Source: an uncultured Saprospiraceae bacterium (GTDB taxonomy: Bacteria; Bacteroidota; Bacteroidia; Chitinophagales; Saprospiraceae). From it: a stretch of DNA of 64,000 nucleotides. This document shows positions 7,902 through 55,087 of this stretch, piece after piece. Position numbers and translations under genes: made by a program. The stretch lies in NCBI GenBank assembly GCA_937959275.1, contig CALGLU010000022.1:130589-194588 (forward strand), written 5' to 3'. Each line of letters opens with the position of its first letter. Position 1 is the first letter of the stretch. The notes beneath the pieces are model-generated. The model saw nothing but the letters and a program-made list of their open reading frames with translations, made no database searches and was not told where the DNA came from.

Positions 7902-7955
7902 TTAATACTATAATGAATTTATTGGTTATCAATTTTAAGAATACTTTTGGTCAAA

Positions 7956-9527: not shown

Positions 9528-9533
9528 AGCCAC

Positions 9534-10922: not shown

Positions 10923-10925
10923 AGT

Positions 10926-12164: not shown

Positions 12165-12174
12165 AAGACAGATT

Positions 12175-40609: not shown

Positions 40610-41273
40610 AAAAAATCAAAAGAGATTCATTGTGTACTTCTTCTTCATGGACTTTTGATATAACAAAGTCGGGTGTGCCAAAATGCGAGAGTATGCAGTC
40701 AAGAGCGCTGTTCTTTGTTAGAATCATATAAATGATGCCGATAGAGTGGCGACGTTCAATTAATTGTGTCACTAAGTTTTTAAAGTAAATAAAATTCTCA
40801 CCAGTATTAAATGCATATTCATCTATGCTTTTGATGCTTGAATTATAGAATGGAGGGTTTAGAATGACGACATCAAACGTTGTCTTCGGGATATCATTGA
40901 ATAAGTTGGAATAATAAGAAATAATATCTACTTGATGAGTAAGGCTATTAATTTGTACGCCTTTAATCGCACTGGGGTTGATGTCTGAAACATGCGCATT
41001 AACCTCATTGAATTTGGACAAGAATAAAGATATTGCAGCGCTTCCGCAACCAAGTTCTAAGGTTGATTTTCCTTTTAAATCAATTGATAATAGAAAGTTT
41101 AATAGTGTTTCAGTTGTTAGGTAAAGTTGAGGATGAAAAACAGAAGGCAGCAGCTGTAAGGTCATACCTCTAAATCTAATGCTGCGCTGTTTACGAAAAT
41201 AGTATTTAATCGCAGAGTAGATAGGTTTATTTAGCCGTGATGGCAGGGCATATATAATTCTATTCAGAAGCAA
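40593..41273 (-). CDS. class I SAM-dependent methyltransferase with NPPF/Y motif (N-methyltransferase type)
   Basis: 226 aa. SAM-binding LELGCGSAAISLFLS and catalytic-type motif VVILNPPFY. The start overlaps the upstream radical SAM gene by 14 nt. Confidence 0.7.
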   Translation of the reverse strand: MLLNRIIYALPSRLNKPIYSAIKYYFRKQRSIRFRGMTLQLLPSVFHPQLYLTTETLLNFLLSIDLKGKSTLELGCGSAAISLFLSKFNEVNAHVSDINPSAIKGVQINSLTHQVDIISYYSNLFNDIPKTTFDVVILNPPFYNSSIKSIDEYAFNTGENFIYFKNLVTQLIERRHSIGIIYMILTKNSALDCILSHFGTPDFVISKVHEEEVHNESLLIFSISMI

Positions 41274-42789
41274 ATCCTTCTATTTCTGGTTGACGGTATT
41301 TAAGCCAAAATTTTTGTAATATTTTTAATTCATAAGGAAATTTGAAAAAGCCTGACTTGTAACGCCATGACGAAACCATTTTCATAACTTTAGTTTGTAA
41401 TGGTGTAATTTTAGCGTCAGTCGTAGTCGGATATTGTGCATTAAGTACGGTCTCAAAATTTTTCACTTTGTCAACCATAGCAGGCGTAAGCCATGGGGTC
41501 AGTGGATTTTTCCTTAAGTCGAATTTTTCCCAACTGGGATCAAGCCAATCGTTTAGAGTCGAAGGAAAAGAAAAACCAGCAGCTACTATCTTTTTGTAAA
41601 GTTCTGAACCTTGAGTAGGCACAGGACTATATAAATAAATGATAATTTCGGTAGCCGGATTGATGGATTTAATATCCTTAATAAATGCAATTTCGCTATC
41701 AATTTGTTTCATGACTTGTGACTCACTTTCTCCCGGAAATCCTAGTACGAAGGAATATTCAGGAATAATGCCAAAGCGTCCAATCCGATCAGCAAATGCT
41801 TTAATTTGAGCACCTGTTTGTTTGCCTCCTTTATCAATACTATCTAAGATATCGTCACTCCCGCTTTCAGCCCCAAGGAATATCATTTTGCAGCCAGAAT
41901 TGGCCATTATTTGTAGTGACTCGTCAGAGTATTTGTCAATAGTGTCAATCCTCCCTTCGCCCCACCAAGTCATATTATAGGGTGTAATAAGTTTTGAAAA
42001 CTCAACAGTTCTTTTTTCTGAGACAAAAAAGTTATTGTCATGAAATTCAATTGAATCACCTCCATATGTTGACCTTATTAATTCAATGTCTTCTATAATT
42101 TTTTGTGCAGATTTTCCTTTCCATCGTGCTTCAAAAATAGGAACGACAGCACAAAAAGAGCAAGAAAATGGACATCCAATACTTGAGTGATAAGCAATTG
42201 TTTCCTTTCCTAAATGTGTAGGGCGCAAATAATTTTTTATTGAGTAAAAGTCATTCAGTTTGTCATAAGGTAATCGGGGTAGTTCGTCTTGTAAAACGAG
42301 TGTTTGTTTTTCAGTTTTTACAATGTCGCCGTTTTCAAGTTGGTAGATCAGATTTGGTATGAATTCGAAAGAACTGTCAGTTTCCAACGAATTTAGGAGA
42401 AACGGGAATGCATTGTCTCCCGGACCATTGATAATAAAATCAACGATATCACTTTTTATACAGACCTCGTATTGGTTAGATGCGAAATAGCCGCCCCATA
42501 TATTGGTAATGTTAGGGTAGTGTTCTCTGATTTTATTTGTTATTGGAATGGCTTGCTTGAGTTGTGGACCAGGCATTACAGTACAACCAAAGTAGGCAAA
42601 GGAGTCAGTATCTAAATATTGTTTTATCTTAAGCCATGGATTATCTTCTCGATTTCCATCAACGATTACCCAATCCCATGTCTCATTTATACTTGCCGCA
42701 ATTTGCAAAATAGAATTAGGAATTCTAAAATTTGCGTTAGAGACAGCTCTAGGGTTAAATAAAAGAACTCTTCCAGATTTGGTGGACAT
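41260..42789 (-). CDS. B12-binding domain radical SAM protein
   Basis: N-terminal Rossmann-like cobalamin-binding-type region (RVLLFNPRA...VMPGPQL...IWGGYFAS). Radical SAM cluster motif IGCPFSCSFC (CxxxCxxC) and GAESGSD. I prefer the ATG at 42789 (MSTKSGRVLLF) over the track TTG at 42810. Confidence 0.85.
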   Translation of the reverse strand: MSTKSGRVLLFNPRAVSNANFRIPNSILQIAASINETWDWVIVDGNREDNPWLKIKQYLDTDSFAYFGCTVMPGPQLKQAIPITNKIREHYPNITNIWGGYFASNQYEVCIKSDIVDFIINGPGDNAFPFLLNSLETDSSFEFIPNLIYQLENGDIVKTEKQTLVLQDELPRLPYDKLNDFYSIKNYLRPTHLGKETIAYHSSIGCPFSCSFCAVVPIFEARWKGKSAQKIIEDIELIRSTYGGDSIEFHDNNFFVSEKRTVEFSKLITPYNMTWWGEGRIDTIDKYSDESLQIMANSGCKMIFLGAESGSDDILDSIDKGGKQTGAQIKAFADRIGRFGIIPEYSFVLGFPGESESQVMKQIDSEIAFIKDIKSINPATEIIIYLYSPVPTQGSELYKKIVAAGFSFPSTLNDWLDPSWEKFDLRKNPLTPWLTPAMVDKVKNFETVLNAQYPTTTDAKITPLQTKVMKMVSSWRYKSGFFKFPYELKILQKFWLKYRQPEIEGFASE

Positions 42790-42875
42790 ATATCCAGTAT
42801 TTTGGTACAAAATAACGAACTTTCGCTCTTTGATTGCAGAGTTTATAAATTTTATCTATATCATTGATTTAAGCT

Positions 42876-43568
42876 ATGAACCGATTGATCATTTTTTTGA
42901 AGTGGTGTGATTATTACCTTCAGAAAATATTACCAAATTTTATATCGTCTGGGTTTAGAAGGATTTCATCAGCTTTTATTACACCATTTCATTTCTCATA
43001 TGCTACTGGACATTTTTGGAGTAGTCTACTAAAAAAGTCAATAAACAAGAAGGGTAGCCCGATTCCTTGGTATACGTACTCATTAATTTCTTATTTGGAG
43101 GGACTTGATTTTAATGAATGTACGGTCTTAGAAATTGGTGCAGGCAATTCTTCGTACTGGTGGGCAGAAAGAGCAAAGCAAGTCATCAGTTTAGAAAGTG
43201 ATCGTAAGTGGTATGACAAGCTTACGACAGGCAATACGTTTGGCAATCTAAAATTTAGATTTTTGAATAATTTGAGTTCGAATAATTTGCTGAATGAATT
43301 CGAGGACCTGAAGAGTTCAACTTATGACATTGTTATTCTGGATGGTATGGATAGATTGGGCCTGATGAGCAATTGTTTAGAGATGCTTTCTCCTAGAGGT
43401 ATATTGATAGCCGATGATACAGATCGATATGATTATTCTACTATACTAGAGGGAACAGGAATAAATAAAATTGATTTTCATGGTTATTCTCCATCTGTTG
43501 TTTTACCAAAAACAAGTAGCATTTACTTTTATCAATCTTGTAATCTTCTATTAAATTATGAGCGCTAA
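42876..43568 (+). CDS. probable class I methyltransferase-fold protein
   Basis: 230 aa. VLEIGAGNSSYWWAERAKQVISLESDRKWYDKL and IVILDGMDR ... ILIADDTDRY resemble a Rossmann SAM-binding core. The pattern recalls polysaccharide O-methyltransferase-like (DUF579-type) proteins, from memory only. Confidence 0.45.
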   Translation: MNRLIIFLKWCDYYLQKILPNFISSGFRRISSAFITPFHFSYATGHFWSSLLKKSINKKGSPIPWYTYSLISYLEGLDFNECTVLEIGAGNSSYWWAERAKQVISLESDRKWYDKLTTGNTFGNLKFRFLNNLSSNNLLNEFEDLKSSTYDIVILDGMDRLGLMSNCLEMLSPRGILIADDTDRYDYSTILEGTGINKIDFHGYSPSVVLPKTSSIYFYQSCNLLLNYER

Positions 43569-44709
43569 AGTTTCGATCATTGCATGTCTGCTAAGTTGTG
43601 TTTTTATACTGTCTCATTGTGCAACAGCTAAAAAGCACGCTAGTAAAGAGTATGATTTAATAATTAATTTGAGGTGGGTAAAATCTTATAAACAAGAAAC
43701 AAGAGATAAGGTAGAAATAGGATTAAAATGGGTGCTTTCTTATTTGGGGGCGATGTTACCAAAAGATCCTCAAGAACAAGTTTTCGTTTGGAATGACAAT
43801 AATGATTTGGAATTGAATCTTTCCGGAGCCGGATTTACAGTTTCTTCTCAAAGGTCTCTGAATAGAATTTTAAAAGAGTATAAATTGACTGAAGAATATC
43901 AATTACTTGGCAGTATGGATGTAGGTCGGTTTGTTATGTTGAGTTTTAATTTTAGCGATAATTATTATGCCATTACAGGAGTGGAAAAAAAGTATAATAA
44001 ATTCAAACAAAAATATAAATTCAATCCACAAGATCAAACGCACCTCTTACCTGGACAATCTGGTGTCACTAATGGTTTGCGAAAGCTGTATTTTTCAAAT
44101 GGAAAATCAGTTAATGAGCTTGCTCATATTGCAGAAGAAGGTCATGGTGATAATTTAGAAGAGTTTTATCCTAAGGAGTTCGAGGTCTTTGATTTTATGA
44201 GTAATGGACAACCAAGATTTGCAGTATATAATTCACAGGGTAATTTAAAGCAAGGAGGAGACCCATTCATATCTTTTGCAGGAAAACCTTCAAAATGTAT
44301 GTGGTGCCATGAATCAGGCGTTCAATTACCATTTAGATTGATAAATGAATACCCAGAGAATCCAGAATTGTTAGCCGATTTTAAAAATCTTGTAAGCAAT
44401 CAGAATAGGCTATTATTCAACTATTATGAAGGATTGACTACGGAAGTAGATACGTTTAGGTTCGATAAACGCAGCCATTATTTAGCAGAGCTTCTTTACA
44501 TTACATATCAAGACCCGCCTAAATTAAGAGCAGTAAATGAACTAAAATTGATTGGGCAAATAGGCAAAAGAAAAGACTTGAAAGTAGTTGACAGTGTACA
44601 TCATGAGTTTAAGTTTTTAAAAAACCTAGTGTCAAGAAATGAACTTGACAAACATCTACCTTATAAGTCGGTATTGGGTTTTGATGCTAGAGAGACTAAG
44701 CTGAATTAG
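43558..44709 (+). CDS. hypothetical lipoprotein with single CXXCH motif
   Basis: 383 aa. Lipoprotein-like signal (IIACLLSCVFILSHC). One heme c-type motif, KCMWCHESG. Its start overlaps the preceding gene by 11 nt. Confidence 0.5.
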   Translation: MSAKVSIIACLLSCVFILSHCATAKKHASKEYDLIINLRWVKSYKQETRDKVEIGLKWVLSYLGAMLPKDPQEQVFVWNDNNDLELNLSGAGFTVSSQRSLNRILKEYKLTEEYQLLGSMDVGRFVMLSFNFSDNYYAITGVEKKYNKFKQKYKFNPQDQTHLLPGQSGVTNGLRKLYFSNGKSVNELAHIAEEGHGDNLEEFYPKEFEVFDFMSNGQPRFAVYNSQGNLKQGGDPFISFAGKPSKCMWCHESGVQLPFRLINEYPENPELLADFKNLVSNQNRLLFNYYEGLTTEVDTFRFDKRSHYLAELLYITYQDPPKLRAVNELKLIGQIGKRKDLKVVDSVHHEFKFLKNLVSRNELDKHLPYKSVLGFDARETKLN

Positions 44710-44720
44710 CTGGGTGTATA

Positions 44721-46256
44721 TTAAAGTTGAATTAAATAGACTGCATAATTTTCTCGCTTTACGATTCCTTCACTAAAGGTTTTAAGGAGCGTTACGGTTG
44801 CTGAGTTAAGCTTAAATTCTTTTTCTGTAGCTTCAAAGAAAATATCCTCTCCATGATACAGTAAAACACTTTTCCTTAGATTTTCCTTCTTCATGTAAGC
44901 CATGGTTTCATCAACTGATTTTTTAAGATCAAACTGCTTGTCTAAGCCTCTTGCTTTAAAAAGTTGATCCCATTCGCAAAAAATCACGCTGTCTTGTATA
45001 TTTAAAAAATACACTGGTTGACTATGGTAGTTTCTAATAGAGATACAATTACAGTATGCATTTGATACTAAGGGATAATCCTGATAGCCATTGTTATCCA
45101 AAAATTCATAAATAGATTTAGTAGCAGAAAAGGGTCTTTTTATATCTGAAATTGTATGGTAGACCCCAGAGGCAATCTGAACAATAAGAATAATTCCTAG
45201 AAGTAAAGGTCTATACTTGAGAATAAAGGGTGAAGGAATCCAAACGAAGTTTTCTGTGGATTCATTAGAATCCATCCATTTAAGAGTGATTAGGAAAAGT
45301 AACAATACACCTCCATACCTTACTCCTGCATGTAATTGCGTTATTATATATATAACAACAATAGTAATAGCTAATACGTACCATACAGATAACAACCAAC
45401 TACTTTGCCATCTAAACATAAATGGAAATAACCAAGACAACAAAACCAAGGGTGCAATGAACCATTTAAACTGATATGTTAAGATATTGGTATTCCAAAA
45501 AAATGATGATCCAATATCTGGTACAGGCATTAACGCTTTGAAGAACAGCATGAGCGCATCAGCTAGTTTTTCAAAAGAGATAGAAAAACCAGTGTTTGAA
45601 ACAAATGGATTATCAAATGGGGGAAGGATTGAGAATAATGACATTAGGAGCATGACAACTAAAATGAGTATTCCAGTTTTTGACCCTTTTATTTCATGTA
45701 GCTTAGATAGTCCGGTTTTAGTAATGATGGCGTTTGCAAAAAGCGAAGAAAATATTAAACCGAAAATGTGTGTATTTGCAATTAGTCCTAGGACAATACT
45801 AATTTTAATCCATGACTGTTTGTAATTTTTGTAATAGATAGACAAGCAAAATAGTAGTAGTATAAGGAGACCATAATTTCTTGTTATTACACCATATTCG
45901 TAGAGAGGGAAATAACTAAAAGCACAGGCATACTTTAAATAAGAGGGAAATGGAGCTTTTTTTACAAATAGTAGGACACCTGAAAATGTAATCATTCCAT
46001 GAATGAGTTGTATAAGTAAGGTGTTTTCAGAAATGTAAGAAGCCGCATACATAATAAGAACCCATAAGAAAGGGTGACCGTCATACCTATAATTGTGGAT
46101 TAATTCAACAAGACTGTTTGATTCTCTTGCTACTAACCAATGATGACTTTCATCCATCCACATCTCATGATTTATGATGCCGACAAATAGACACACAGCA
46201 TAAATTAATAAGATGAATGAATTTGTATATTTATGTGTAATTATATTCTTTAGCAT
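44721..46256 (-). CDS. polytopic membrane protein, GT-C-fold glycosyltransferase-like (ArnT/PMT-like)
   Basis: 511 aa with about 11 TM segments. An acidic DE motif follows the first TM (HEMWMDESHHWLVARE), as in GT-C enzymes. Soluble C-terminal domain of about 120 aa. Confidence 0.5.
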   Translation of the reverse strand: MLKNIITHKYTNSFILLIYAVCLFVGIINHEMWMDESHHWLVARESNSLVELIHNYRYDGHPFLWVLIMYAASYISENTLLIQLIHGMITFSGVLLFVKKAPFPSYLKYACAFSYFPLYEYGVITRNYGLLILLLFCLSIYYKNYKQSWIKISIVLGLIANTHIFGLIFSSLFANAIITKTGLSKLHEIKGSKTGILILVVMLLMSLFSILPPFDNPFVSNTGFSISFEKLADALMLFFKALMPVPDIGSSFFWNTNILTYQFKWFIAPLVLLSWLFPFMFRWQSSWLLSVWYVLAITIVVIYIITQLHAGVRYGGVLLLFLITLKWMDSNESTENFVWIPSPFILKYRPLLLGIILIVQIASGVYHTISDIKRPFSATKSIYEFLDNNGYQDYPLVSNAYCNCISIRNYHSQPVYFLNIQDSVIFCEWDQLFKARGLDKQFDLKKSVDETMAYMKKENLRKSVLLYHGEDIFFEATEKEFKLNSATVTLLKTFSEGIVKRENYAVYLIQL

Positions 46257-46339
46257 TTCATCAATAAATTGAAGCTAGTTAAACGACTGTCACTCTCTTT
46301 TTGAAAAGTGAATAACATAGGTAAATATGATACTAATTT

Positions 46340-47221
46340 ATGACGAATAGACTTGTTTCAATTATTACACTTACCTATAATAGAAGAAATATTTTAGGTA
46401 AAAGTATAAAAAGTGCTTTAGAACAAACATATACTAATTTTGAGCTACTCATCTTAGACGATGGGTCAGATGATGGTACTTCAGAATTCATGCAGACATT
46501 TTCTGATAGCCGGATTAGCTATAAGTATTTAAATCACAGTGGGAATGTAGCAGCATTGCGTAACAAAGGAATGAAGCTAGCCAAAGGCGAATATATTGCC
46601 TTCTTAGATTCAGATGATTTATGGTCGCCCAATAAATTAGAAGTTCAGGTAAATTGCTTAGAAGATAACCCAGAGACAGGAATTACATTTTGTGGCACTA
46701 AGCGTTGGGATTCTTATGGTAACATCAAAGAAAATCATTTTAAGCACTTGGAGTATGATTCTGTGCCACAGAATCTTTTTAATGATTTTATAGTTAACAA
46801 ATTTATCGTTGTTCCTTCCGCCTGTTTATTCAGAAAATCTGTTCTTAATCAATCTGGTTATTCCAATGAAAATCTAATAACTGGTGACACTGAGTTTATA
46901 TCTCGAATACTTATTAATGAATTAGCGATAGTAGATAAAGATGCTTATGTTGAAATGACGCAAAATGGTGACAATATGACTAACTATATTCAAAAAGATA
47001 GTTACCATGAATATCAGTATATGCTCGATTACAATTTTGAAAGGAATCTGATCTCTCAGCCGATATACACAAAGATGTCAGCTCGTATGTCGTATTTATT
47101 AGCAAAACAATTGTTAGTTGAAAATAAGCTTAAGGAATCGCGCAAAGTTTTCGGTAAGACAATTCGAATGAATAAGTTGAATTATAAAGCGTGGTTTTAT
47201 TACTTAAAATCTTATTTATAA
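46340..47221 (+). CDS. family 2 glycosyltransferase
   Basis: 293 aa. Motifs VSIITLTYNRRN, ILDDGSDDGT and AFLDSDDLW. Confidence 0.9.
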   Translation: MTNRLVSIITLTYNRRNILGKSIKSALEQTYTNFELLILDDGSDDGTSEFMQTFSDSRISYKYLNHSGNVAALRNKGMKLAKGEYIAFLDSDDLWSPNKLEVQVNCLEDNPETGITFCGTKRWDSYGNIKENHFKHLEYDSVPQNLFNDFIVNKFIVVPSACLFRKSVLNQSGYSNENLITGDTEFISRILINELAIVDKDAYVEMTQNGDNMTNYIQKDSYHEYQYMLDYNFERNLISQPIYTKMSARMSYLLAKQLLVENKLKESRKVFGKTIRMNKLNYKAWFYYLKSYL

Positions 47222-47242
47222 CAAGATTGAATTAATTTATAT

Positions 47243-47983
47243 ATGGCATCATTGAATAAACTCGCGAAAAGAATAGGGAAGCGATTCCTTCCACGATTTT
47301 ATGCGTATTTGAAAGAGCAAAAAATGATGCGCTTTTATTCTACATTAATTAGTCAAGGAGATTTGTGTTTTGATATAGGTGCGAATATGGGGAATCGTAC
47401 ATCAGTGTTTTTAAAACTAGGCGCAACAGTTGTTGCAGTTGAGCCTCAAGCAAAGTGCATCTCGCATTTGGAAGAACTGTATAAAAATGATCAAAATGTC
47501 TCAGTAGAAACTTGCGCATTAAATGAAACATCAGGTAGTTCTATCATGTATATTTCAGATTTTGACCAAATTTCAACCTTGTCGCAAGAATTTGTTCAAA
47601 AATTTGGAGAGGGAAATGAATTAAGCTGGCCTTCGAAAGAAACGGTTGAAATGAAAACATTTGATCAGTTGATTGAACAATATGGTGTCCCTGATTTTAC
47701 AAAAATTGATGTGGAAGGTTTTGAGTTAAATGTACTAAAAGGCTTGTCTGTTTCTATACCTTCTCTTTCTTTTGAATTTACAACGCCAATGAAATATAAA
47801 AGTATAGAATGCATTAAGCAATTGATGAGTTTGGGAGAGTATCAGTTTAAGCTTTCTTACTACGAAACGATGAAGTTCGACAGCCCCAAATGGCTTGATG
47901 ATAAGCAAATCTTACAGCAACTCAATGTGATTCCAAAACACATTGTACATGGTGATGTCTATGCCAAATTAGTTAAGCATTAG
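47243..47983 (+). CDS. FkbM family methyltransferase
   Basis: 246 aa. Motifs CFDIGANMGNRTSVF, VVAVEP and TKIDVEGFELNVLKG. Confidence 0.85.
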   Translation: MASLNKLAKRIGKRFLPRFYAYLKEQKMMRFYSTLISQGDLCFDIGANMGNRTSVFLKLGATVVAVEPQAKCISHLEELYKNDQNVSVETCALNETSGSSIMYISDFDQISTLSQEFVQKFGEGNELSWPSKETVEMKTFDQLIEQYGVPDFTKIDVEGFELNVLKGLSVSIPSLSFEFTTPMKYKSIECIKQLMSLGEYQFKLSYYETMKFDSPKWLDDKQILQQLNVIPKHIVHGDVYAKLVKH

Positions 47984-48836
47984 CTTCATATTTTTCATAG
48001 AATTCAAAGATCTCATTTTCACTATAGAAGTGCTTTGTATACTTTGATTCTAACATGTTTGTTAAATAATCTTGGTTAAAAAAGATCTTCTTTTTAAACT
48101 TGTTGTATAGCTCTGCATATGGTTTTTGTTCTCCAATATTATGGGAATTTAAAGTAAATGTAGAAACGCCGAGAAAACGCCTAATCTCTTCTGACATCTT
48201 GTTATCGTTTAGGTCTGTGCGAAGTAATAGAACCTCAATGTTTTTATCTGTATAAGTGATAGATTTTTTAGTTACATCGAAAGACTTTTCAAATACATTA
48301 ATTGATGTCATTCGAAGAAACTCTTTGTCAAACCATTCTAAAGGAAATTCATGTGGCAAGTATTTATAGTAGGCTTGTACTAATTGATCGATGTCTCCCT
48401 CCCACAGTTTTGGAGGGATGCCAAGATAATATTCGAAAGCCTCAAAGAAAGCAGAAATGTTTCTTTCTATTGGTTCTCTGACACTTGTAATGATTTTTAA
48501 TGGTCTATTTGCTTTTATTCTAAACTGGTAGATAAGGTCTCCAACAGGCCTGCTCGCGGGCACAATTCCTCTTTCTTGACAACTTAGTTCGGCTTGTTCA
48601 TTTATTTTCTTGTCTAGTGTATGTATATGATAAACAGGGATTGTTGTCTGATTATTTATAGAATGGTATATTGAACTAGAAGCTACCTTGGCCATGGTAT
48701 ACACTGCTACAGGAGTAATTTCTTGTTGTAATACTCGACAAGCTTTTCGATAGTTATATCGATCTATTATTTGATAACGCGCTATGGACTTTAGTTTTTT
48801 AATGTTTAAATATTTAGTTTTCTTATCGTATAGCAT
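47973..48836 (-). CDS. sulfotransferase-like protein
   Basis: 287 aa. 5'-PSB-like TMAKVASSSIYHS and 3'-PB-like SVREPIERNISAF motifs in the expected order. The assignment is by pattern only. Confidence 0.45.
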   Translation of the reverse strand: MLYDKKTKYLNIKKLKSIARYQIIDRYNYRKACRVLQQEITPVAVYTMAKVASSSIYHSINNQTTIPVYHIHTLDKKINEQAELSCQERGIVPASRPVGDLIYQFRIKANRPLKIITSVREPIERNISAFFEAFEYYLGIPPKLWEGDIDQLVQAYYKYLPHEFPLEWFDKEFLRMTSINVFEKSFDVTKKSITYTDKNIEVLLLRTDLNDNKMSEEIRRFLGVSTFTLNSHNIGEQKPYAELYNKFKKKIFFNQDYLTNMLESKYTKHFYSENEIFEFYEKYEANA

Positions 48837-50371
48837 CCTGGTGCTCTACCAGTATCTGTTAAAAAGATGACTGTCGATTCATTAATAATGTAGGGACTTA
48901 TTTTTTTATCTTTTGTGTTAGTCAATTGCCTGTTTTTATAATAGATTTGATTATCAGTTACGTTAATGTCATCAGTACTGTAAGTCGATACTTGAATCCC
49001 TGTCTTTCTCAATGTTTCACCAGTAATGCTCCAATAATAATATTGTAATTCTCCTTCTACTATTTTTAAATTGCTCATTATGAGTGGTGGTTTATGATTT
49101 AATTCGAAGTATTGATAGGCGCTAGTTAAATTCTTATTTGAGAAGCCTTGAATTGAAAACACAATGATAAAACCGACTACATAGTTAAAAGGCATACGAT
49201 AGGCGTGTAGGCCTGAGATTAATACAAACACAATAAATAGCAATAAAATTTTTATAAAATTAAAGGGTAAGGCTAGATTGATTAAGTAATGAGTCGGGAA
49301 GGTGGTTACGAAAAGCAATAATGTAAGTATTATAAGTAAGGTACTTTGTTTTATTTTGTAATGAAAAAGTGATAGAATAGGAATGATAAGTATAAGTTTA
49401 GAATAACTACTGCTAGTCGGAGCAATTAATAAGCCAGCAATAATCCAAAGGGAAAATGAATATAGAATGTATGTTTTATTAAGCCGTGTTGCAGAAGCAG
49501 CTAGTGCAAAGATCAAAGACTTATATAAAACGAAGCTTAATGTATACAAGAAAGTACTGCTAATGAAAGGACTAGGATTTAGCAGGTCGTCTTTCACAAA
49601 TGTGTTTTTAAAAAGCATAACAGTTGATTTTGCTTGAACTGTAAATCCATCATATATTAGACCGGCACTAGATGAGGGAAAAACATCTGCAAAATAATAG
49701 TGTAAGGTTTCAAAACTAATAAGCAGAGAAGAAGCTAAGATTAGTAATCCACAGGTAACAAAAATGTAACAAATGGTAGCAAAGTCTTTTTTGAAAAACA
49801 ACCAAAATAATATGATTATTGGAAAAACTTTAATTAAAATTGCCACAGACCATAAAAGTGCAGCTAATGGTTTACGATTTTTTTCATAGGATAGTAGACC
49901 TTCAGCTAATAGAAAGAAAATAAAAAAATAGGTCTGGCCAAAGAGCAGAGTGTTTTTAATGGCTACCGCTGTTAGAATTATGATTATCGCATAGTGCCAA
50001 GCGTTAAGTTTATAGTAAGAGAAAAGACGGCATAGAGCTAAAAGGAATAATGATGCTCCAATTATATTATGTATTAATTTAGCTTCTGGCCAATCAAAAT
50101 AACTGAGAGGTAAATATGCAATTGCAATAAAGGGGGTGTTAGGATAAAAATTTACAAACAGCTTGTTAATCCCAACGTCTTCGAAAAGCTGATTAAAATG
50201 AAGAGCATCATAAATGTCTGGTGTAAAATTATTTGCTAATATAGCCTTTCCACCTAAATAATAATTAGCAAAGTCATGTATTTGAAACGTATATGACTTC
50301 CAAAGATAAAAGGCAACCAAAATTATACTAGCTAACACAAAGCCTAGATATTTAGTGCGTTCACTTAGCAT
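48806..50371 (-). CDS. polytopic membrane protein, GT87/DUF2029-like glycosyltransferase
   Basis: 521 aa. N-terminal HDFANYYLGGKAIL after TM1 resembles the DUF2029/GT87 signature. About 10 TM segments plus a C-terminal extracytoplasmic domain of about 120 aa. Confidence 0.55.
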   Translation of the reverse strand: MLSERTKYLGFVLASIILVAFYLWKSYTFQIHDFANYYLGGKAILANNFTPDIYDALHFNQLFEDVGINKLFVNFYPNTPFIAIAYLPLSYFDWPEAKLIHNIIGASLFLLALCRLFSYYKLNAWHYAIIIILTAVAIKNTLLFGQTYFFIFFLLAEGLLSYEKNRKPLAALLWSVAILIKVFPIIILFWLFFKKDFATICYIFVTCGLLILASSLLISFETLHYYFADVFPSSSAGLIYDGFTVQAKSTVMLFKNTFVKDDLLNPSPFISSTFLYTLSFVLYKSLIFALAASATRLNKTYILYSFSLWIIAGLLIAPTSSSYSKLILIIPILSLFHYKIKQSTLLIILTLLLFVTTFPTHYLINLALPFNFIKILLLFIVFVLISGLHAYRMPFNYVVGFIIVFSIQGFSNKNLTSAYQYFELNHKPPLIMSNLKIVEGELQYYYWSITGETLRKTGIQVSTYSTDDINVTDNQIYYKNRQLTNTKDKKISPYIINESTVIFLTDTGRAPGCYTIRKLNI

Positions 50372-51743
50372 ACCTCATTTTATTTCTAAAATAAAATGCC
50401 TTTAACACATGTTTAAGAGCGGTTACATTTAGATAGTTCTTAGCCACAAGAAATTGATGCCATCTTGTTTCATTATCTACCCACCTCAACGCGTAGTCAT
50501 AATACTGTCGTGAATATGTTCGTTTAAAATCTCGATCACGGTCTGTAGACGTGGCCCAGTCTTTATCATATACTTGATCAGCTTCTATCTCTTGGTACAT
50601 TGAGGTACCCTTAATGGGATAAGCTACTGTTATTGTAAAATGATTTGGTTGGCAATCTTTTAAATAGTCTACGGTCATAAAAATGTCTTCTTCTGTTTCA
50701 CCTGGATAACCTAGCATAATAAACGTACCTGCTTCAATGCCTTTTTTCTTTGTTAGTTTAATCATGTCACTTACATAATTAACATCAACCCTTCTATCCA
50801 TTAAATTGATGACTCGTTGAGATCCACTTTCTGCGCCAATCCATATTCTAAAACATCCTGCTTCTACAAGCCAATCGATTACCTCCTCTGTCATTCGATC
50901 TGCTCTTGTGATACATTCAAAAGGTATAATGGCATCCTGTTTTTTGAGCTCGTCTTTAAAATCCTCCAGCCATTTATGACTGACTGAGAAGACATCATCT
51001 ACAAACCAAATGGTGTCTGGATTATAGTTGTCTTTAAGTGTCTTCATTTCTTGAGCTACGAGGGCTGGCGATCGCCTGCGGTAACTTTGGCCATACACTG
51101 CAGTGCTACACCATTTACATGTATAGGGACATCCTCGTTGTGTACTTATGGTCATTGCACTTTTGCCATGATTTTGCTTCCAAGTGTCTAGATATGGTTG
51201 CATATCTATCATTTTCCTGTTTGGCAAGGGGAGATCATCAATAGGTCTGATTCTGGTCCTCTCTTTGGTTTGTATGACTTCTCCTTGACTGCGGTAAGCT
51301 AAGCCGTCGATGTGAGCGAATTCCTGATCGTTGCCTTGCTGAATAGTTTGTATGATCTCCAACATTGTTTGTTCGCCTTCTCCAATCACGATAATATCTG
51401 CACCAATATTTAGATAATCTTCAACATTGTGTCTCACATCAGGACCACCCAAGACTATTTTTGTGCCCGCACTATGCTTTTTTGTATGTTGAATCGTTTC
51501 ATTAATATTTACCTTCGTCATCAAATTAGTATACAAGGCTAATATGCTAGGCTGCTGTTTTTTGATGTGATCTTTGAATATTTCTTTTTTGGAAAATGTG
51601 GTGTCAAAGACCTCGTGTTGCAATCCATGTTTTTCTAGCCACGCAGAGATATACAGTATCCCAAGCGGAGGATATGGCTTCATGATCTTCTGCTCTTTAG
51701 CATCTTCATAAATATAATAACCGTGGGATAGAATGACTGTCAT
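50361..51743 (-). CDS. B12-binding domain radical SAM protein (paralogue of 52509..53948)
   Basis: 460 aa. N-terminal B12-binding-type Rossmann region (PPLGILYISAWL ... VLGGPDV ... VIGEGEQT). Radical SAM motif RGCPYTCKWC and IGAESGSQRV. Confidence 0.85.
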   Translation of the reverse strand: MTVILSHGYYIYEDAKEQKIMKPYPPLGILYISAWLEKHGLQHEVFDTTFSKKEIFKDHIKKQQPSILALYTNLMTKVNINETIQHTKKHSAGTKIVLGGPDVRHNVEDYLNIGADIIVIGEGEQTMLEIIQTIQQGNDQEFAHIDGLAYRSQGEVIQTKERTRIRPIDDLPLPNRKMIDMQPYLDTWKQNHGKSAMTISTQRGCPYTCKWCSTAVYGQSYRRRSPALVAQEMKTLKDNYNPDTIWFVDDVFSVSHKWLEDFKDELKKQDAIIPFECITRADRMTEEVIDWLVEAGCFRIWIGAESGSQRVINLMDRRVDVNYVSDMIKLTKKKGIEAGTFIMLGYPGETEEDIFMTVDYLKDCQPNHFTITVAYPIKGTSMYQEIEADQVYDKDWATSTDRDRDFKRTYSRQYYDYALRWVDNETRWHQFLVAKNYLNVTALKHVLKAFYFRNKMRYAK

Positions 51744-52507
51744 TTAATTTTTTGCAAATGAATTAGAAAATGATCCGATTTATCAGGCCTATAATTTAAC
51801 AGGTACAAAATCTTGTCGATCAACAAAAGTGGGAAAAGTAATTTACTATTATTTAAAAAGGAAGGTACATATCCTATTGATTTTATCTTAACAATATCAA
51901 AACCTTTAAATGCAGTCGCTACAGCATTAGGCCCAAAGTAGTAAGTTTTGATCGTTTGCCCGTCAACATTAACGGCTAACACTTTATCTTTTTCTCTAGT
52001 TTTTGAAATAGTCGCTTGCCGGTTGACCACACGGTACCAGTTATCTATGATCGATTTAGTGGGCATGATGACTAAAACAATATGTGCCTTGTCATTCAGA
52101 TGCTCATTAAGCCAGGTACTAATGAATGCCAATTGATTGTAGTCGATGCAATTGAGCCCACCAAAGTTTGAAAAGACAAGGTCAAATTTTGTCTTTTTAT
52201 CTAAAGAAGGTTGCCTTAAATCAAGTTGGGAAAAAGTAACTTCAAGCTTGTTTTGTTTTGATTTTGCCTTTGCAATATTGAGCATTGCATCTGAAATGTC
52301 AGTAGCTAAGACACGATAACCCAAGCGTGTAAGAAATTGTGCATCTTCACCAGTCCCACAGTTCAGCTCTAAGACATTGCGATTCGAATGTTTGGCTTTA
52401 AGTTTTAATATATAATCCCATACTCGTTTGCGCTGCACTTGTCCAATTTTCGAATATGTAAACTCTCGATCATAGGCTTCTGCAGCATTGTCAAAGTCCG
52501 CACTCAT
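51740..52507 (-). CDS. class I SAM-dependent methyltransferase
   Basis: 255 aa. Motif VLELNCGTGEDAQFL...DISDAML...DLVFSNFGGLN. There is a 4-nt overlap with the downstream gene and a 1-nt gap to the upstream gene. Confidence 0.85.
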   Translation of the reverse strand: MSADFDNAAEAYDREFTYSKIGQVQRKRVWDYILKLKAKHSNRNVLELNCGTGEDAQFLTRLGYRVLATDISDAMLNIAKAKSKQNKLEVTFSQLDLRQPSLDKKTKFDLVFSNFGGLNCIDYNQLAFISTWLNEHLNDKAHIVLVIMPTKSIIDNWYRVVNRQATISKTREKDKVLAVNVDGQTIKTYYFGPNAVATAFKGFDIVKIKSIGYVPSFLNNSKLLFPLLLIDKILYLLNYRPDKSDHFLIHLQKIK

Positions 52508-52508
52508 C

Positions 52509-53948
52509 TTAAATATAGCTTTGAAGCTTTCTTTTATTCAGCAGTGCTAATGGAAAATGATAAACCATCCTAGCTATATCTTTCAAAAAAGAGTCTTGCT
52601 TAGAATTCAATTTTCCGGTGGCCCTCATGAAACCTTTCTTGATTCGATAACGATTATGGACATAACGATGTAGTACTTTGTAAAATATTGGTGGATATGT
52701 ATTTTGAAACATCATATCAAGATCGTCTGAATCTGTCCAGTTCGATTTGAGCACTAAGTCCGCTTTGACCTTTTCATAAAAGGAAGTCCCTGGTAGGGGA
52801 TAAGAAACTGATATGCCGATATCGTCGGGCATTAGATCCAGCACCATATTAATGGTTTGTTGGACTTCTTCCCACGTTTCAGTGAGGTAACCGAATTGGA
52901 GGAAGAACGCGACGTTTACATTTCTTTCTTTGAGTTTACGAGTTGCCGTGTAAATCTGGTCTACGGTTGTGCCTTTGTCCATGGCATCCAATATTCTTTG
53001 AGAACCACTCTCTGCACCTAGCCAAATAGTATCTACGCCACTTTCGGCTAATGCATCCAAGTTGTCATCTTTGAGCATCAGGTCAGCTCGTGACTGGATT
53101 TTATATTTAAAGTCTAGTCCTTTCTCATTTTTTAAATCTCTAAACCGTTGTACCCAGCCTGGCTTAAGACCAAAAATATCATCGCACATCCAAAAGTAAT
53201 CAACACCATATGTCCTTATCAAATAGTCTATTTCTTGAATAACATCTTCAGGAGATCGGCTATTATATCGGTTACCATAAATCGGTTTGGCACACCAATT
53301 ACATTTATACGGACACCCTCTTGTCGTTGCAATGTTAAGCTGCAGGGCTTGGCCTTTTGTAGACCAAATAGAGCGATACGCTTCTATATCTATATCTTCT
53401 CTACTTGGAAAGGATAGCTGATCAAGATTTTTCGTTACTTGACGATTAGCATTTTTTGATACACCATTTTTATCGTTGCGACTAATTCCTAAAACCGCAT
53501 TAAGGTCGCCATCCTTTTTTATGGTTTCCAATAATTCGATTAGCGTTAATTCACCTTCTCCGTGAATAATAAAGTCTGCTCCTTTTTCATGATAGAGTTG
53601 AAAGTGATCCGTCGCGTCGGAGCTATTACAGATGACAAGGCATCCATGTTCTTTTGCTTTAGCAATGATATCAAATGTAGCCTGCTGCATGGTTGACAGG
53701 CACATCTTAGTCAGGTAGTTAAACCCATCATCATATAGTATAAGGTGAGTTGGTTTTAGTGAAGTTATTTCTTCATAGATCTCCTCATGACTTTTTACCA
53801 AATTGTTGTCAAAGACCGTTGTCTCAAAGCCAGCTTTTCTAAGTTCAGATGCCGCATAAAGAGTGCCTAAGGGTGTATAGGGTTGAGCTATTTGCCATTG
53901 TTTAACATCATATTGATAATAGTATGTATTTGCAATCAGAATGCGCAT
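52509..53948 (-). CDS. B12-binding domain radical SAM protein (paralogue of 50361..51743)
   Basis: 479 aa. Motifs TPLGTLYAASEL ... IHGEGELT, RGCPYKCNWC and LGAESGSQRI. Confidence 0.85.
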   Translation of the reverse strand: MRILIANTYYYQYDVKQWQIAQPYTPLGTLYAASELRKAGFETTVFDNNLVKSHEEIYEEITSLKPTHLILYDDGFNYLTKMCLSTMQQATFDIIAKAKEHGCLVICNSSDATDHFQLYHEKGADFIIHGEGELTLIELLETIKKDGDLNAVLGISRNDKNGVSKNANRQVTKNLDQLSFPSREDIDIEAYRSIWSTKGQALQLNIATTRGCPYKCNWCAKPIYGNRYNSRSPEDVIQEIDYLIRTYGVDYFWMCDDIFGLKPGWVQRFRDLKNEKGLDFKYKIQSRADLMLKDDNLDALAESGVDTIWLGAESGSQRILDAMDKGTTVDQIYTATRKLKERNVNVAFFLQFGYLTETWEEVQQTINMVLDLMPDDIGISVSYPLPGTSFYEKVKADLVLKSNWTDSDDLDMMFQNTYPPIFYKVLHRYVHNRYRIKKGFMRATGKLNSKQDSFLKDIARMVYHFPLALLNKRKLQSYI

Positions 53949-53953
53949 AAGAG

Positions 53954-54865
53954 CTAAGCAGGTGTTTTAGTAATATTGGAATTATACTTTCTAAGTGTAT
54001 TTTTTTGGTGATTCGAATCATGCACTTTGATTTGATCAAATGTAGACCTGTACATTAATTCGAAATCTTTGTTTTTTTTGTTATTATACTTTAAGTGATT
54101 TCTTAAAACGGAAGCAGACCTAATTATGTAATTGAGAATCGATCCCAAGGGATTATTCAAAATGAGTTCAGTCCAGCGTTTGATTTTACTTTTATTGAAT
54201 GGTCGTTCAATATAATTCGTATCGTCGATACTGATATTGGGCAAATAGGTCTTGTACCATGTATTGGCAAGCAACAACTGATCATATAAGTTTTTACTAC
54301 TGATTGGTATTAGTGTCGCAAGCTCAGTTGCCGTATATAGGTTTTGCTCTTCAATAGTTAAATTCTCATCAGAGATAAAGTAGTTTGTACAGAAAAGCTC
54401 TTTTCGGTTTTTTAGAATTAAGAACTTGTATGCTTTAACAAAGAACTTTGCTAGCCAAATTTTTCCGCTTTTTGCAAAAATAAAGTAGTCGATATCTGCA
54501 TCATCTTTCATAACTCCTTTGGATAAACTTCCAGAAATACAAACGCCTGAAACAAATGGAATATTCAATATTATATGACCATGCTTCACACTCGTCTCAT
54601 GATGTCCAAATGCATTCTTTTCATACTTTATTCTATCATGAACCTTTTTTTCAAGATGCAGGAGTCCGTAATAATCTTGAAATGAATATGCTGAATTAGT
54701 AGCGATAAGTTTTTGAAGAGCTATTTTAATTTCTGATTCTTCGGCCTTAGATTGTAAAAATCGATGAATCTCTGAAACGTTCAAAGGGTGATCAAATAAA
54801 TCAAAATAATGCAGGCATTTTAGTACCTGAAGTTCCAATTCACTTATTTTTTTCTTTGAACTCAA
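53954..54865 (-). CDS. Pol-beta-superfamily nucleotidyltransferase-like protein with N-terminal winged-helix-like segment
   Basis: 303 aa. ISGSLSKGVMKDDADIDYFIF fits the G[SG]x9-13DxD nucleotidyltransferase motif. Apparent TTG start. It is the first gene of a tightly packed six-gene minus-strand operon. Confidence 0.55.
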   Translation of the reverse strand: MSSKKKISELELQVLKCLHYFDLFDHPLNVSEIHRFLQSKAEESEIKIALQKLIATNSAYSFQDYYGLLHLEKKVHDRIKYEKNAFGHHETSVKHGHIILNIPFVSGVCISGSLSKGVMKDDADIDYFIFAKSGKIWLAKFFVKAYKFLILKNRKELFCTNYFISDENLTIEEQNLYTATELATLIPISSKNLYDQLLLANTWYKTYLPNISIDDTNYIERPFNKSKIKRWTELILNNPLGSILNYIIRSASVLRNHLKYNNKKNKDFELMYRSTFDQIKVHDSNHQKNTLRKYNSNITKTPA

Positions 54866-55087
54866 TGATAATATTTACAAAAACGGAAATGTACTTATTT
54901 ACTAATAGTCAACCAGATATTTGACATGGGCTCTGTAGGAATTATTAGTGTACGATTGACAATTCTTAGTATCAAAAGTACAATTTTTTAAACCATTATT
55001 GTACGGCTTGTGCTAGCACTCCATTTTTGTAAAAATACAAGGATTATAGCTGTTTTGATGTAAAATTAGGTCAAAAAAGAAGGCTTA

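Follow-up and report, generated by a model that had tools for sequence, protein, structure and literature searches.

The class B radical S-adenosylmethionine (SAM) enzyme Fom3 methylates 2-hydroxyethylphosphonate only once that substrate has been cytidylylated by Fom1 (PMC8158854), and GenK and GenD1 from the gentamicin pathway and MoeK5 from the moenomycin pathway are B12-dependent radical SAM C-methylases that act on sugars (PMC9204698). In the Fom1/Fom3 pathway a nucleoside monophosphate (NMP) handle comes first, and a radical SAM enzyme that uses cobalamin then adds a methyl group to an unactivated sp3 carbon. The cytidylyltransferase domain of Fom1 is not known to have the Pol-beta fold, and MoeK5 acts on a lipid-phosphate-linked sugar. 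Here we describe a gene cluster in a 64,000-nucleotide stretch of DNA (the window) from an uncultured Saprospiraceae bacterium (GenBank assembly GCA_937959275.1, contig CALGLU010000022.1), in which a gene for a predicted Pol-beta-type nucleotidyltransferase (NTase) is followed by genes for a radical SAM protein with a B12-type architecture (rSAM A), a class I SAM-dependent methyltransferase (MT), a second such radical SAM protein (rSAM B), a polytopic GT87-family protein and a protein of the PF10364 (NKWYS) family. The adjacency of the NTase and rSAM A genes fits the logic of the Fom1/Fom3 pathway; whereas that pathway has a single radical SAM enzyme and belongs to an antibiotic cluster, loci of the window type hold two to four radical SAM (rSAM) paralogues in a glycan-assembly context. 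We consider it likely that the cassette is the tailoring module of a surface-glycan assembly locus.

The six genes (Table 1) are predicted to form one operon within a locus of about 16 kb. Their positions on the minus strand and their spacing, as described in an earlier note on this DNA, match the open reading frame (ORF) list exactly, and the operon-like packing reported there is real, with junctions of +5, +1, -4, -11 and -31 nt in order from the NTase gene to the NKWYS gene. We take the 31-nt overlap of the GT87 and NKWYS genes to be real because no alternative start codon is available before the conserved lysine K50 of the NKWYS protein; use of any ATG, GTG or TTG between the ATG at 48836 and K50 would cost the P-loop-like motif. 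Public gene calls start the NTase at a TTG nine codons downstream, giving 294 instead of 303 residues, a choice that alters nothing else. When the minus strand was scanned across the six genes, no terminator-like site was found between 54812 and 47973, and the sole such site on the coding strand (54829-54812) lies at the 5' end of the NTase gene. A shared strand, short or negative spacing and the lack of an internal terminator therefore all speak for an operon. Because tight spacing is common elsewhere in the window, where 10 of 23 same-strand neighbours outside the operon lie at most 5 nt apart, the packing is an ordinary operon signature and no anomaly; the chance of five successive tight junctions is about 0.016, assuming independent junctions. 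The Bacteroidota -7 promoter consensus is TAnnTTTG, and the exact copy upstream of the NTase gene gives a weak indication of a promoter, the motif having a density of 0.59 per kb per strand in the window. Since eight more copies lie within the operon, internal promoters may also exist.

A scan of species-representative genomes matched at least 599 stretches, at least 561 of which encode a relative of the NTase. We compared the best-scoring 80 of these at least 561 loci, a selection that biases co-occurrence counts towards close relatives, and counted genes near the NTase by tblastn with the window proteins; ORFs were clustered de novo across 84 loci (83 fetched loci and the window). The 80 loci come from Saprospiraceae, Cyclobacteriaceae, Flavobacteriaceae, Chitinophagales, the Chryseolinea/Ohtaekwangia group, Ignavibacteriales and one metagenome-assembled genome labelled Methylacidiphilales. 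The gene most tightly linked to the NTase is that of rSAM A, directly downstream in 77 of 79 loci (46-78% identity); the MT gene lies within 3 kb downstream in 67 of 74, and the rSAM B gene is on the same strand and within 4.5 kb in 40 of 63, a second methyltransferase replacing rSAM B in Cyclobacteriaceae-type loci. Among the 44 full-length loci, 14 encode a third rSAM, rSAM C, in the fetched flanks and no more than 10 kb from the NTase, usually together with a methyltransferase partner, and 7 encode GT87 in those flanks.

Judged from these comparisons, NTase-rSAM A-MT-rSAM B is a widely conserved four-gene core found in hundreds of species, with the predicted GT87 and NKWYS genes as lineage-specific accessories. 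Indeed, the two accessories follow rSAM B only in the window lineage and in one other locus (L085), and elsewhere they are on the other strand, distant or absent. That locus, the closest relative among the matches listed (NTase 63% identical), has the same six-gene order. The six-gene unit proposed in the earlier note thus stands as regards its first four genes and shrinks to the window lineage and L085 as regards the last two, and the co-occurrence of the NTase with the rSAM pair, which that note had suggested examining, is borne out for both rSAMs in the best-scoring loci, more strictly for A than for B.

Natural fusions of the NTase are the strongest evidence for a glycan context, as far as this can be read from gene content. 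A profile search identified proteins in which the NTase is joined to a short-chain dehydrogenase/reductase (SDR)-type, NAD-dependent sugar epimerase/dehydratase (two proteins), to Bac_transf, to a GT4 glycosyltransferase or to a class I methyltransferase (P0300, P0417, P0337, P0339 and P0405, in loci L086-L090). Bac_transf is the initiating transferase, of the polyprenol-phosphate sugar-1-phosphate type. In L089 the order is Wzz-Wzy_C-(MT+NTase)-rSAM-MT-rSAM, and in L090 genes for Bac_transf, DUF1972, Wzy_C with tetratricopeptide repeats (Wzy_C-TPR), RgpF and Wzy_C precede (GT4+NTase)-rSAM. Two further contexts are without an rSAM: GT4-GT4-Wzy_C-(Bac_transf+NTase)-epimerase in L086, and flippase-Wzy_C-GT4-GT4-(Wzy_C+Bac_transf)-(NTase+epimerase) in L087 and L088. 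Because of these rSAM-free contexts, the NTase is best described, at the level of gene neighbourhoods, as a general component of such glycan loci, with rSAM-MT-rSAM as one alternative set of partners.

Unfused NTase genes have similar neighbours. By Pfam labels, L082 reads NTase-rSAM-MT-rSAM-CxxCH lipoprotein-GT2-GT87-flippase-rSAM C-MTS (MTS being a HemK/PrmC-like methyltransferase) and L084 reads GT2-GT2-Wzy_C-NTase-rSAM-MT-MT-ABC exporter-GT2-GT4, the start of the NTase gene overlapping the end of the Wzy_C gene within a long operon; in L083, MT-MT-rSAM-GT2-GT8 is divergent from the NTase. Genes for GT4, GT2, Wzy_C, an ABC exporter, flippase-like proteins, GT9 heptosyltransferase, PMT_2/EpsG and PF13469 sulfotransferase recur across the 84 loci, 63 of which carry at least one glycosyltransferase (GT), Wzy_C, ABC or flippase gene in the fetched flanks. 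The suggestion in the earlier note of a lipid-linked or membrane-associated substrate thus gains comparative backing from the NTase fusions and from the Wzz, Wzy_C, flippase and ABC-exporter neighbours. Wzy-dependent O-antigen and exopolysaccharide (EPS) loci combine Wzz, a Wzy/WaaL-family protein, an initiating transferase of the WbaP or PglC type and the flippase Wzx; like them, related loci have the NTase surrounded by genes for Wzz, Wzy_C, Bac_transf, Polysacc_synt and GT4/GT2. The window shares Wzy_C-TPR and GT2 genes with such loci, whereas its cluster has no initiating transferase, Wzz or flippase. Our literature searches found no classical Wzy-type locus with a Pol-beta NTase or B12-type rSAMs.

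The three rSAMs of the window all contain the radical SAM core (PF04055; 82.6, 83.5 and 42.3 bits for A, B and C against a cutoff of 29.5) and a CxxxCxxC cluster motif, which reads CPYKCNWC at residue 212 of A, CPYTCKWC at residue 205 of B and CPFSCSFC at residue 213 of C. The B12-binding domain PF02310 is above its cutoff of 32.1 bits in rSAM B (49.1 bits) and below it in rSAM A (21 bits) and rSAM C (23.1 bits), and many rSAM A orthologues have a precomputed PF02310 match; cobalamin binding and methyl transfer by these proteins are predicted activities. rSAM A and rSAM B are true paralogues, as had been claimed from stretches of peptide that are indeed present in both, with 33% identity over 451 residues (E = 7e-87), and rSAM C is 25-26% identical to each. 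The three fall into clean orthologue groups, with 82 members at least 46% identical to the window copy for A, 49 members at least 52% identical for B, and orthologues 55-66% identical across phyla for C. A fourth rSAM type, 24-29% identical to C, adjoins C in L020, L035, L037, L048 and L074. Because identity within the A and B groups across phyla (at least 46% and at least 52%) exceeds the 33% between the two window copies, their sequences mark A and B as ancient paralogues and not as a recent duplication.

We compared the rSAMs with NCBIfam models for BchE, HpnJ, HpnR, PhpK, MgmA, BzaD, AprD4, KedN5, TsrM-type enzymes and C-methylases of ribosomally synthesized and post-translationally modified peptides (RiPPs). 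No curated cutoff was reached by A, B or C in this comparison, to which GenK, Fom3, HpnP, Tes and GrsA are external. The best scores were 146.8 bits for A (BchE, cutoff 481), 172 for B (PhpK family, cutoff 600) and 112.4 for C (HpnJ, cutoff 578), and the best resemblances overall (BchE, PhpK, HpnJ, ApyD, MgmA and TIGR04072) come to between one-fifth and two-fifths of the required score. The earlier note had held that its reading would fall if both rSAMs belonged to a well-characterised orthologue group with a function unrelated to the neighbouring genes; with every NCBIfam score under cutoff, no such membership was found, and assignment to BchE, HpnJ, HpnR, PhpK, MgmA, AprD4, BzaD or the other known groups was rejected. 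Source databases name rSAM A homologues generically or, automatically, 'anaerobic Mg-protoporphyrin IX monomethyl ester cyclase', a label that we regard as an over-annotation because the BchE model gives 147 bits against a cutoff of 481. HpnJ, which groups with MoeK5 and Fom3 in a published sequence-similarity network (PMC9204698), is among the better resemblances of all three rSAMs.

In phmmer searches of solved structures, MgmA was the best match for rSAM A (5e-18) and OxsB the second (1e-12), and AprD4 was the best for rSAM B (1e-19) and MgmA the second (3e-17); the scores are modest (51-74 bits), and several alignments reach only the C-terminal half of the query. These three enzymes join a radical SAM core to an N-terminal Rossmann-like domain, as A and B are predicted to do; the window rSAMs score far under the cutoffs of the AprD4 and MgmA NCBIfam models. 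AprD4 is a diol dehydratase and transfers no methyl group, MgmA C-methylates a protein glutamine, and OxsB acts on nucleotides in a ring contraction.

In an AlphaFold2 model of the NTase (pLDDT 92.7), the first 70 residues form a winged helix, which is followed by a long helix, a core of the Pol-beta type and a C-terminal domain built of helices. All 88 homologues aligned share S111-G112-S113 and D124-x-D126 without change, so that the protein has the hG[GS] and [DE]x[DE] motifs of the Pol-beta superfamily; the model places the former at or just past the end of strand 105-111 and the latter at the start of strand 126-131. Conserved C-terminal residues K280, H282, N285 and Q287, together with the N-terminal winged helix, are peculiar to the family. 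Aligned homologues match PF01909 at E < 1 in 22 of 22 cases (best 1.1e-6), and some of 217 word-indexed homologues of about 300 residues have weak PF01909 or PF18765 matches; a profile built from the 88 homologues retrieved 1929 representative proteins at E <= 1e-30. A Foldseek search for a full-length relative gave no match with E < 1e-3. Domain-level, partial matches were to the IclR, HrcA and AF1382-type winged helices and to MntA, ANT(4'), AAD(9), LinB and DrrA, the NTase-type matches as a whole having weak E values of at least 0.08 and partial alignments, and a sequence-profile search of the PDB gave marginal NTase matches only. The small-molecule O-nucleotidylyltransferases ANT(4'), AAD(9) and LinB and the minimal NTase MntA resemble the window protein in that GS and DxD motifs mark a Pol-beta core and a helical domain comes after it, but the structural matches to them are partial and weak (E of at least 0.1), and no HEPN partner accompanies the window NTase.

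The gene between the two rSAM genes encodes a class I methyltransferase, as the earlier note had it, with Methyltransf_25, _31, _11 and _12 all above their Pfam cutoffs. The GT87 assignment (PF09594, formerly DUF2029) likewise holds: the profile scores 72.3 bits against a cutoff of 25 and is matched over 237 of 237 positions, in a polytopic protein with nine transmembrane (TM)-like segments and a soluble C-terminal extension of about 140 residues; no PDB sequence match was found for it. A polyprenol-phosphate sugar is a plausible donor by analogy with systems in which a GT2 enzyme of the Dpm1/GtrB kind serves a GT-C enzyme (PimE/GT87, Gtr, ArnT), with which the window shares a polytopic GT87-family protein. 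In L082 a GT2 gene lies directly upstream of GT87, its single PDB match being dolichol-phosphate mannose synthase (E = 1.9e-11), and the GT2 cluster to which it belongs has members in seven related loci. Unlike these Dpm1/GT-C pairs, the window is without a Dpm1-like GT2, its GT87 protein has the C-terminal extension of about 140 residues and is an accessory instead of a core gene product, and its acceptor is certainly no mycobacterial phosphatidylinositol mannoside.

The last gene of the operon encodes a PF10364 protein (90.1 bits, cutoff 25.1), a family that Pfam describes as a putative capsular polysaccharide synthesis protein. In an alignment of 32 sequences, K50 in AKVASSS, R120, P122 and S128 are invariant and R125 nearly so. 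Sulfotransferases bind 3'-phosphoadenosine-5'-phosphosulfate (PAPS) through a PKxGTT-like 5'-PSB and an RxPxxRxxS-like 3'-PB motif, which AKVASSS and R120-x-P122-x-x-R125-x-x-S128, compared by eye, resemble. The top Foldseek matches of the AlphaFold2 model (pLDDT 92.3) are SULT7A1 and SULT1A1 (E 0.02-0.1, TM-score about 0.3, not significant); no Sulfotransfer_* Pfam match and no PDB sequence match was found for the window protein, and one homologue matches PF00685 at E = 0.024. The label 'sulfotransferase-like' is therefore reasonable as a reading of motifs and model, and what stands of the claim that this is a sulfotransferase is the resemblance in motif and fold, the fold matches being weak. 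Separately, bona fide PF13469 sulfotransferase genes recur near the cassette in L003, L012, L015 and L077 (for example L077 19212-19952). Because these are loci without NKWYS, sulfation may be a recurrent theme, achieved by different enzymes.

The cluster is larger than the six genes described earlier: it extends beyond them to 38765 (38765-54865) and includes rSAM C (Table 1).

Table 1. Features of the cluster and of the region upstream of it (window coordinates)
Feature	Position	Strand	Details
Promoter-like motif TACTTTTG	54973-54980	-	Exact TAnnTTTG match (sequence reading and motif scan), in the 222-nt gap upstream of NTase
NTase	53954-54865	-	303 aa; TTG start; first gene of conserved core
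rSAM A	52509-53948	-	479 aa
Class I SAM-dependent methyltransferase (MT)	51740-52507	-	255 aa
rSAM B	50361-51743	-	460 aa
GT87	48806-50371	-	521 aa
PF10364 (NKWYS) protein	47973-48836	-	287 aa
FkbM-family methyltransferase	47243-47983	+	PF05050 55 bits; TIGR01444 84.9 bits (cutoff 37.7)
Soluble GT2 glycosyltransferase	46340-47221	+	PF00535 113 bits; no TM segment
Polytopic membrane protein	44721-46256	-	511 aa; at least 8 TM-like segments
CxxCH lipoprotein	43558-44709	+	383 aa; lipoprotein-type signal; AGKxxKCxWCHE invariant in 11/11 homologues
Methyltransf_24-like protein	42876-43568	+	PF13578 E = 3.6e-4, under cutoff; weak assignment
rSAM C (third B12-binding-domain radical SAM protein)	41260-42810	-	PF04055 42.3 bits
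HemK/PrmC-like (MTS) methyltransferase	40593-41273	-	PF05175 50.9 bits; overlaps rSAM C by 14 nt
Wzy_C (O-antigen ligase/polymerase family) protein with C-terminal TPR	38765-40609	+	PF04932 76 bits; 10 TM-like segments

The best NCBIfam resemblances of the soluble GT2 enzyme are TuaG, WcaA and EpsE, all under cutoff. The 511-residue polytopic protein has no Pfam or NCBIfam match, and its homologues come after rSAM B in L036, L052, L061 and L070, a placement conserved in Aquimarina-type loci; because an acidic 'MDESHHW' stretch follows its first TM segment, it may be a second GT-C-type enzyme. The CxxCH lipoprotein, also without a family match in Pfam or NCBIfam, is encoded directly 3' of rSAM B in Flavobacteriaceae loci (for example L082 14518-15642), and its conserved motif suggests a periplasmic haem c protein tied to the cassette. 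The Methyltransf_24-like gene has a counterpart at the same place in L085. The MTS methyltransferase, whose NCBIfam resemblances are to the PRK14968 and PrmC families (all under cutoff), is the constant partner of rSAM C and is paired with it in related loci. Of the 84 loci compared, 12 have the Wzy_C-TPR architecture close to the NTase, and in 14 more a shorter Wzy_C lies directly upstream. Two convergent gene pairs of the window overlap at their 3' ends, FkbM and NKWYS by 11 nt (47973-47983) and Wzy_C-TPR and MTS by 17 nt (40593-40609), and because of these overlaps neither pair leaves room for a terminator; in L085, unlike the window, the FkbM gene follows NKWYS on the same strand.

Starting from what is observed of gene anatomy, domains, conservation of the core, embedding among glycan genes and NTase fusions, we think it probable, with rather less assurance than for the tailoring role of the cassette, that the locus as a whole builds and decorates a polyprenol-linked surface glycan of the O-antigen, lipooligosaccharide, EPS or protein-glycan type. 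In the scheme we propose, the Pol-beta-type NTase would attach an NMP to a sugar or sugar-phosphate precursor, both activating it and giving the next enzymes a handle for recognition. rSAM A and rSAM B would then carry out cytoplasmic radical chemistry on unactivated carbons of the nucleotide-tagged precursor, with C-methylation as the most likely reaction and dehydration or ring rearrangement as possible ones; MT, acting after the first radical reaction and before the second, would add an O- or N-methyl group, and rSAM C and its HemK-like partner would make further modifications. GT2 and GT4 enzymes would incorporate the tailored unit into a lipid-linked oligosaccharide, to which, after flipping, GT87 and the second polytopic protein might add sugars from polyprenol-phosphate donors on the periplasmic side. 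The NKWYS protein would add sulfate, if it is truly a sulfotransferase, and the Wzy_C-TPR protein would polymerise the glycan or ligate it to an acceptor. We put forward the specific order, from nucleotide handle to radical C-methylation, only tentatively, and the complete version, in which an NTase-tagged sugar precursor is C-methylated or rearranged by two to four B12-type rSAMs and installed in a polyprenol-linked envelope glycan, is possible but rather more doubtful still.

The sugar C-methylases GenK, GenD1 and MoeK5 resemble this scheme in the cobalamin-type radical SAM C-methylation of carbohydrate carbons, but they belong to actinomycete secondary-metabolite pathways, any orthology to the window rSAMs, which reach no curated family cutoff, would be conjectural, and methylation in the window is a prediction. 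Fom3 is likened here by description and not by sequence, and the window has none of the phosphonate genes (PEP mutase) of the Fom1/Fom3 pathway.

Several observations weigh against the scheme. The co-occurrence counts carry the bias towards close relatives noted above, and because rSAMs are missing altogether from some loci of the NTase family, the NTase is not strictly dependent on them. The window NTase alone reaches 16.6 bits against a Pfam cutoff of 21, its third catalytic carboxylate could not be assigned, and its winged-helix domain would equally suit a regulator. The B12-binding domain of the window rSAM A is under the Pfam cutoff; as the chemistries of AprD4, MgmA and OxsB differ, the nearest structures leave the reaction unfixed, and by sequence relationship AprD4 and MgmA establish neither methylation nor a sugar substrate. 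No Dpm1-like polyprenol-phosphate sugar synthase that could feed GT87 was found in the window, and neither an initiating phosphoglycosyl transferase nor an SDR epimerase was found in the window cluster or window-wide. The substrate, nucleotide and product of the cassette are themselves inferred.

The main rival is that the NTase is a regulator, acting through a DNA-binding winged helix or through nucleotidylylation of proteins, and that the rSAMs and MT act on ordinary nucleotide sugars or undecaprenyl-linked intermediates. The fold of the first 70 residues, whose best Foldseek matches are the IclR, HrcA and AF1382-type DNA binders, the presence of protein-modifying MntA-type minimal NTases among the partial matches, and the position of the NTase gene at the head of the operon all favour this. 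We nevertheless think it unlikely: fusions to Bac_transf, GT4, SDR epimerase and methyltransferase domains typify enzymes of the same pathway and not transcription factors, in L084 the NTase gene belongs to a long operon and its start overlaps the end of the Wzy_C gene, and all 88 sequences keep the catalytic GS and DxD motifs unchanged. Other partial matches of the NTase, to ANT(4'), AAD(9) and LinB, could point instead to a secondary metabolite that is glycosylated and diffusible, like the aminoglycosides or moenomycin, for which the NTase would serve in self-resistance or activation as an ANT/Lnu-like enzyme, and the closest solved relatives of the rSAMs include AprD4, from apramycin biosynthesis, and OxsB; the known B12-dependent sugar C-methylases GenK, GenD1 and MoeK5 are likewise antibiotic-pathway enzymes (PMC9204698). 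However, all these Foldseek matches are weak (E > 1e-3), synteny of the core extends over several hundred species-representative genomes, mostly of one phylum, a pattern that suits an envelope trait better than an antibiotic, and the core lies beside genes for Wzz, Wzy_C, Bac_transf, a flippase and GT9 heptosyltransferase. No aminocyclitol, non-ribosomal peptide synthetase or polyketide synthase gene was seen in the Pfam-labelled loci, in which many flank ORF clusters carry no annotation, and we consider the metabolite explanation improbable.

Nor does the rSAM evidence lead readily to another class of substrate. Modification of a membrane lipid or isoprenoid (a hopanoid-like, ether or carrier lipid, as with HpnP, HpnR, Tes and GrsA) that is then glycosylated would agree with the NCBIfam resemblances to HpnJ, HpnR and TIGR04072, a 'lipid biosynthesis B12-binding/radical SAM protein', with the polytopic GT-C proteins and, at a distance from the cluster, with a mevalonate-pathway gene (16095-17159) that shows isoprenoid metabolism. 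Yet rSAM A is far under the corresponding cutoffs (HpnR 90 against 650 bits, HpnJ 119 against 578, TIGR04072 105 against 360), the 84 loci have no conserved gene for a squalene-hopene cyclase, a polyprenyl synthase or ether lipids, and the NTase fusion partners are glycan enzymes, so that we rate this explanation as low as that of a diffusible metabolite. Peptide or protein modification by the rSAMs and the HemK-like methyltransferase, as in a RiPP or by C-methylation of the MgmA kind, has on its side that MgmA, a glutamine C-methylase of methyl-coenzyme M reductase (MCR), heads the solved relatives of rSAM A and comes second among those of rSAM B (PMC11796369), that ApyD and RiPP C-methyltransferase families are among the NCBIfam resemblances, that the rSAM C partner resembles the PrmC/HemK protein glutamine methylases, and that 13 loci hold a SPASM rSAM. 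We clustered 1578 small intergenic ORFs from the 84 loci and found no family in more than five loci, those five being closely related Aquimarina; the RiPP cluster was rejected for want of a conserved small precursor ORF, and, with no protease, leader-recognition or cyclase genes seen and all family scores well under cutoff, modification of a peptide or protein is very improbable. Slimmest of all is the chance that the locus tailors a cell-surface phosphonate or phosphinate by nucleotidyl activation and PhpK-like P- or C-methylation. Nucleotidyl activation is reported to dominate the tailoring of bacterial cell surfaces with phosphonates (PMC6697681), and the PhpK P-methyltransferase family is the best NCBIfam resemblance of rSAM B; still, its 172 bits are far under the 600-bit cutoff, the PEP-mutase signature motif occurs in 0 of 1199 related-locus ORFs and in none of the six frames of the window, and the window ORFs of at least 120 residues that were scanned gave no PEP-mutase family match, on which grounds phosphonate tailoring was rejected.

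Tailoring of a surface glycan thus being the reading we prefer, its interest lies in the combination of enzymes. Surface-polysaccharide loci with tailoring enzymes are well known as a kind. What appears to be undescribed, and to belong to no characterised enzyme family, is the conserved association of several B12-type rSAMs with a Pol-beta NTase in such loci; our literature searches, whose coverage lay outside subscription journals, found no description of this gene combination. Because the rSAMs are outside every characterised orthologue group compared, they are candidates for new B12-dependent radical SAM reactions, and the cassette points to sugar modifications, such as C-methyl and other radical-derived groups, beyond the reach of ordinary SAM-dependent methyltransferases. 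The strict pairing of the NTase with rSAM A gives a concrete and testable idea of how substrates might be recognised.

In marine and soil Bacteroidota the surface glycans, whose chemistry is poorly known, influence susceptibility to phages, gliding, adhesion and the way particles are colonised. A cassette of an NTase and several B12-dependent radical enzymes, conserved across several hundred species-representative genomes, would link the structure of the envelope to the availability of cobalamin. If the complete version of the scheme is true, branched-chain sugars in the surface polysaccharides of Bacteroidota and Ignavibacteriota would be made by a widespread route that has so far escaped recognition, and B12-dependent radical SAM chemistry, otherwise a matter of antibiotics, pigments or lipids, would be seen for the first time in the primary assembly of a cell-envelope glycan.

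Two further candidates were set aside. A cobalamin riboswitch or other RNA element was rejected, as the window matched no Rfam family and yielded no tRNA. A role in anti-phage defence was rejected after PADLOC gave weak partial matches only, to PDC-M51A (a candidate model that contains an rSAM) and to the methyltransferase part of mad2, with no match for the NTase, GT87, NKWYS or rSAM C proteins.

The remainder of the window is ordinary Bacteroidota chromosome, with genes for GldB, a CarboxypepD_reg/TonB-dependent receptor, a protein with a type IX secretion system (T9SS) C-terminal sorting domain, GH31 and Trk. A histidine-utilisation block on the plus strand (7947-14202) encodes urocanase and, besides it, an aromatic amino acid lyase and two amidohydrolases; as listed, the urocanase ORF (12061-14202) starts 104 nt inside the preceding ORF, and its true start is probably further downstream. 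An 870-residue protein (21596-24208, plus strand) has as its only Pfam match a C-terminal cytochrome c domain (residues 726-775) and is apparently unrelated to the cluster.

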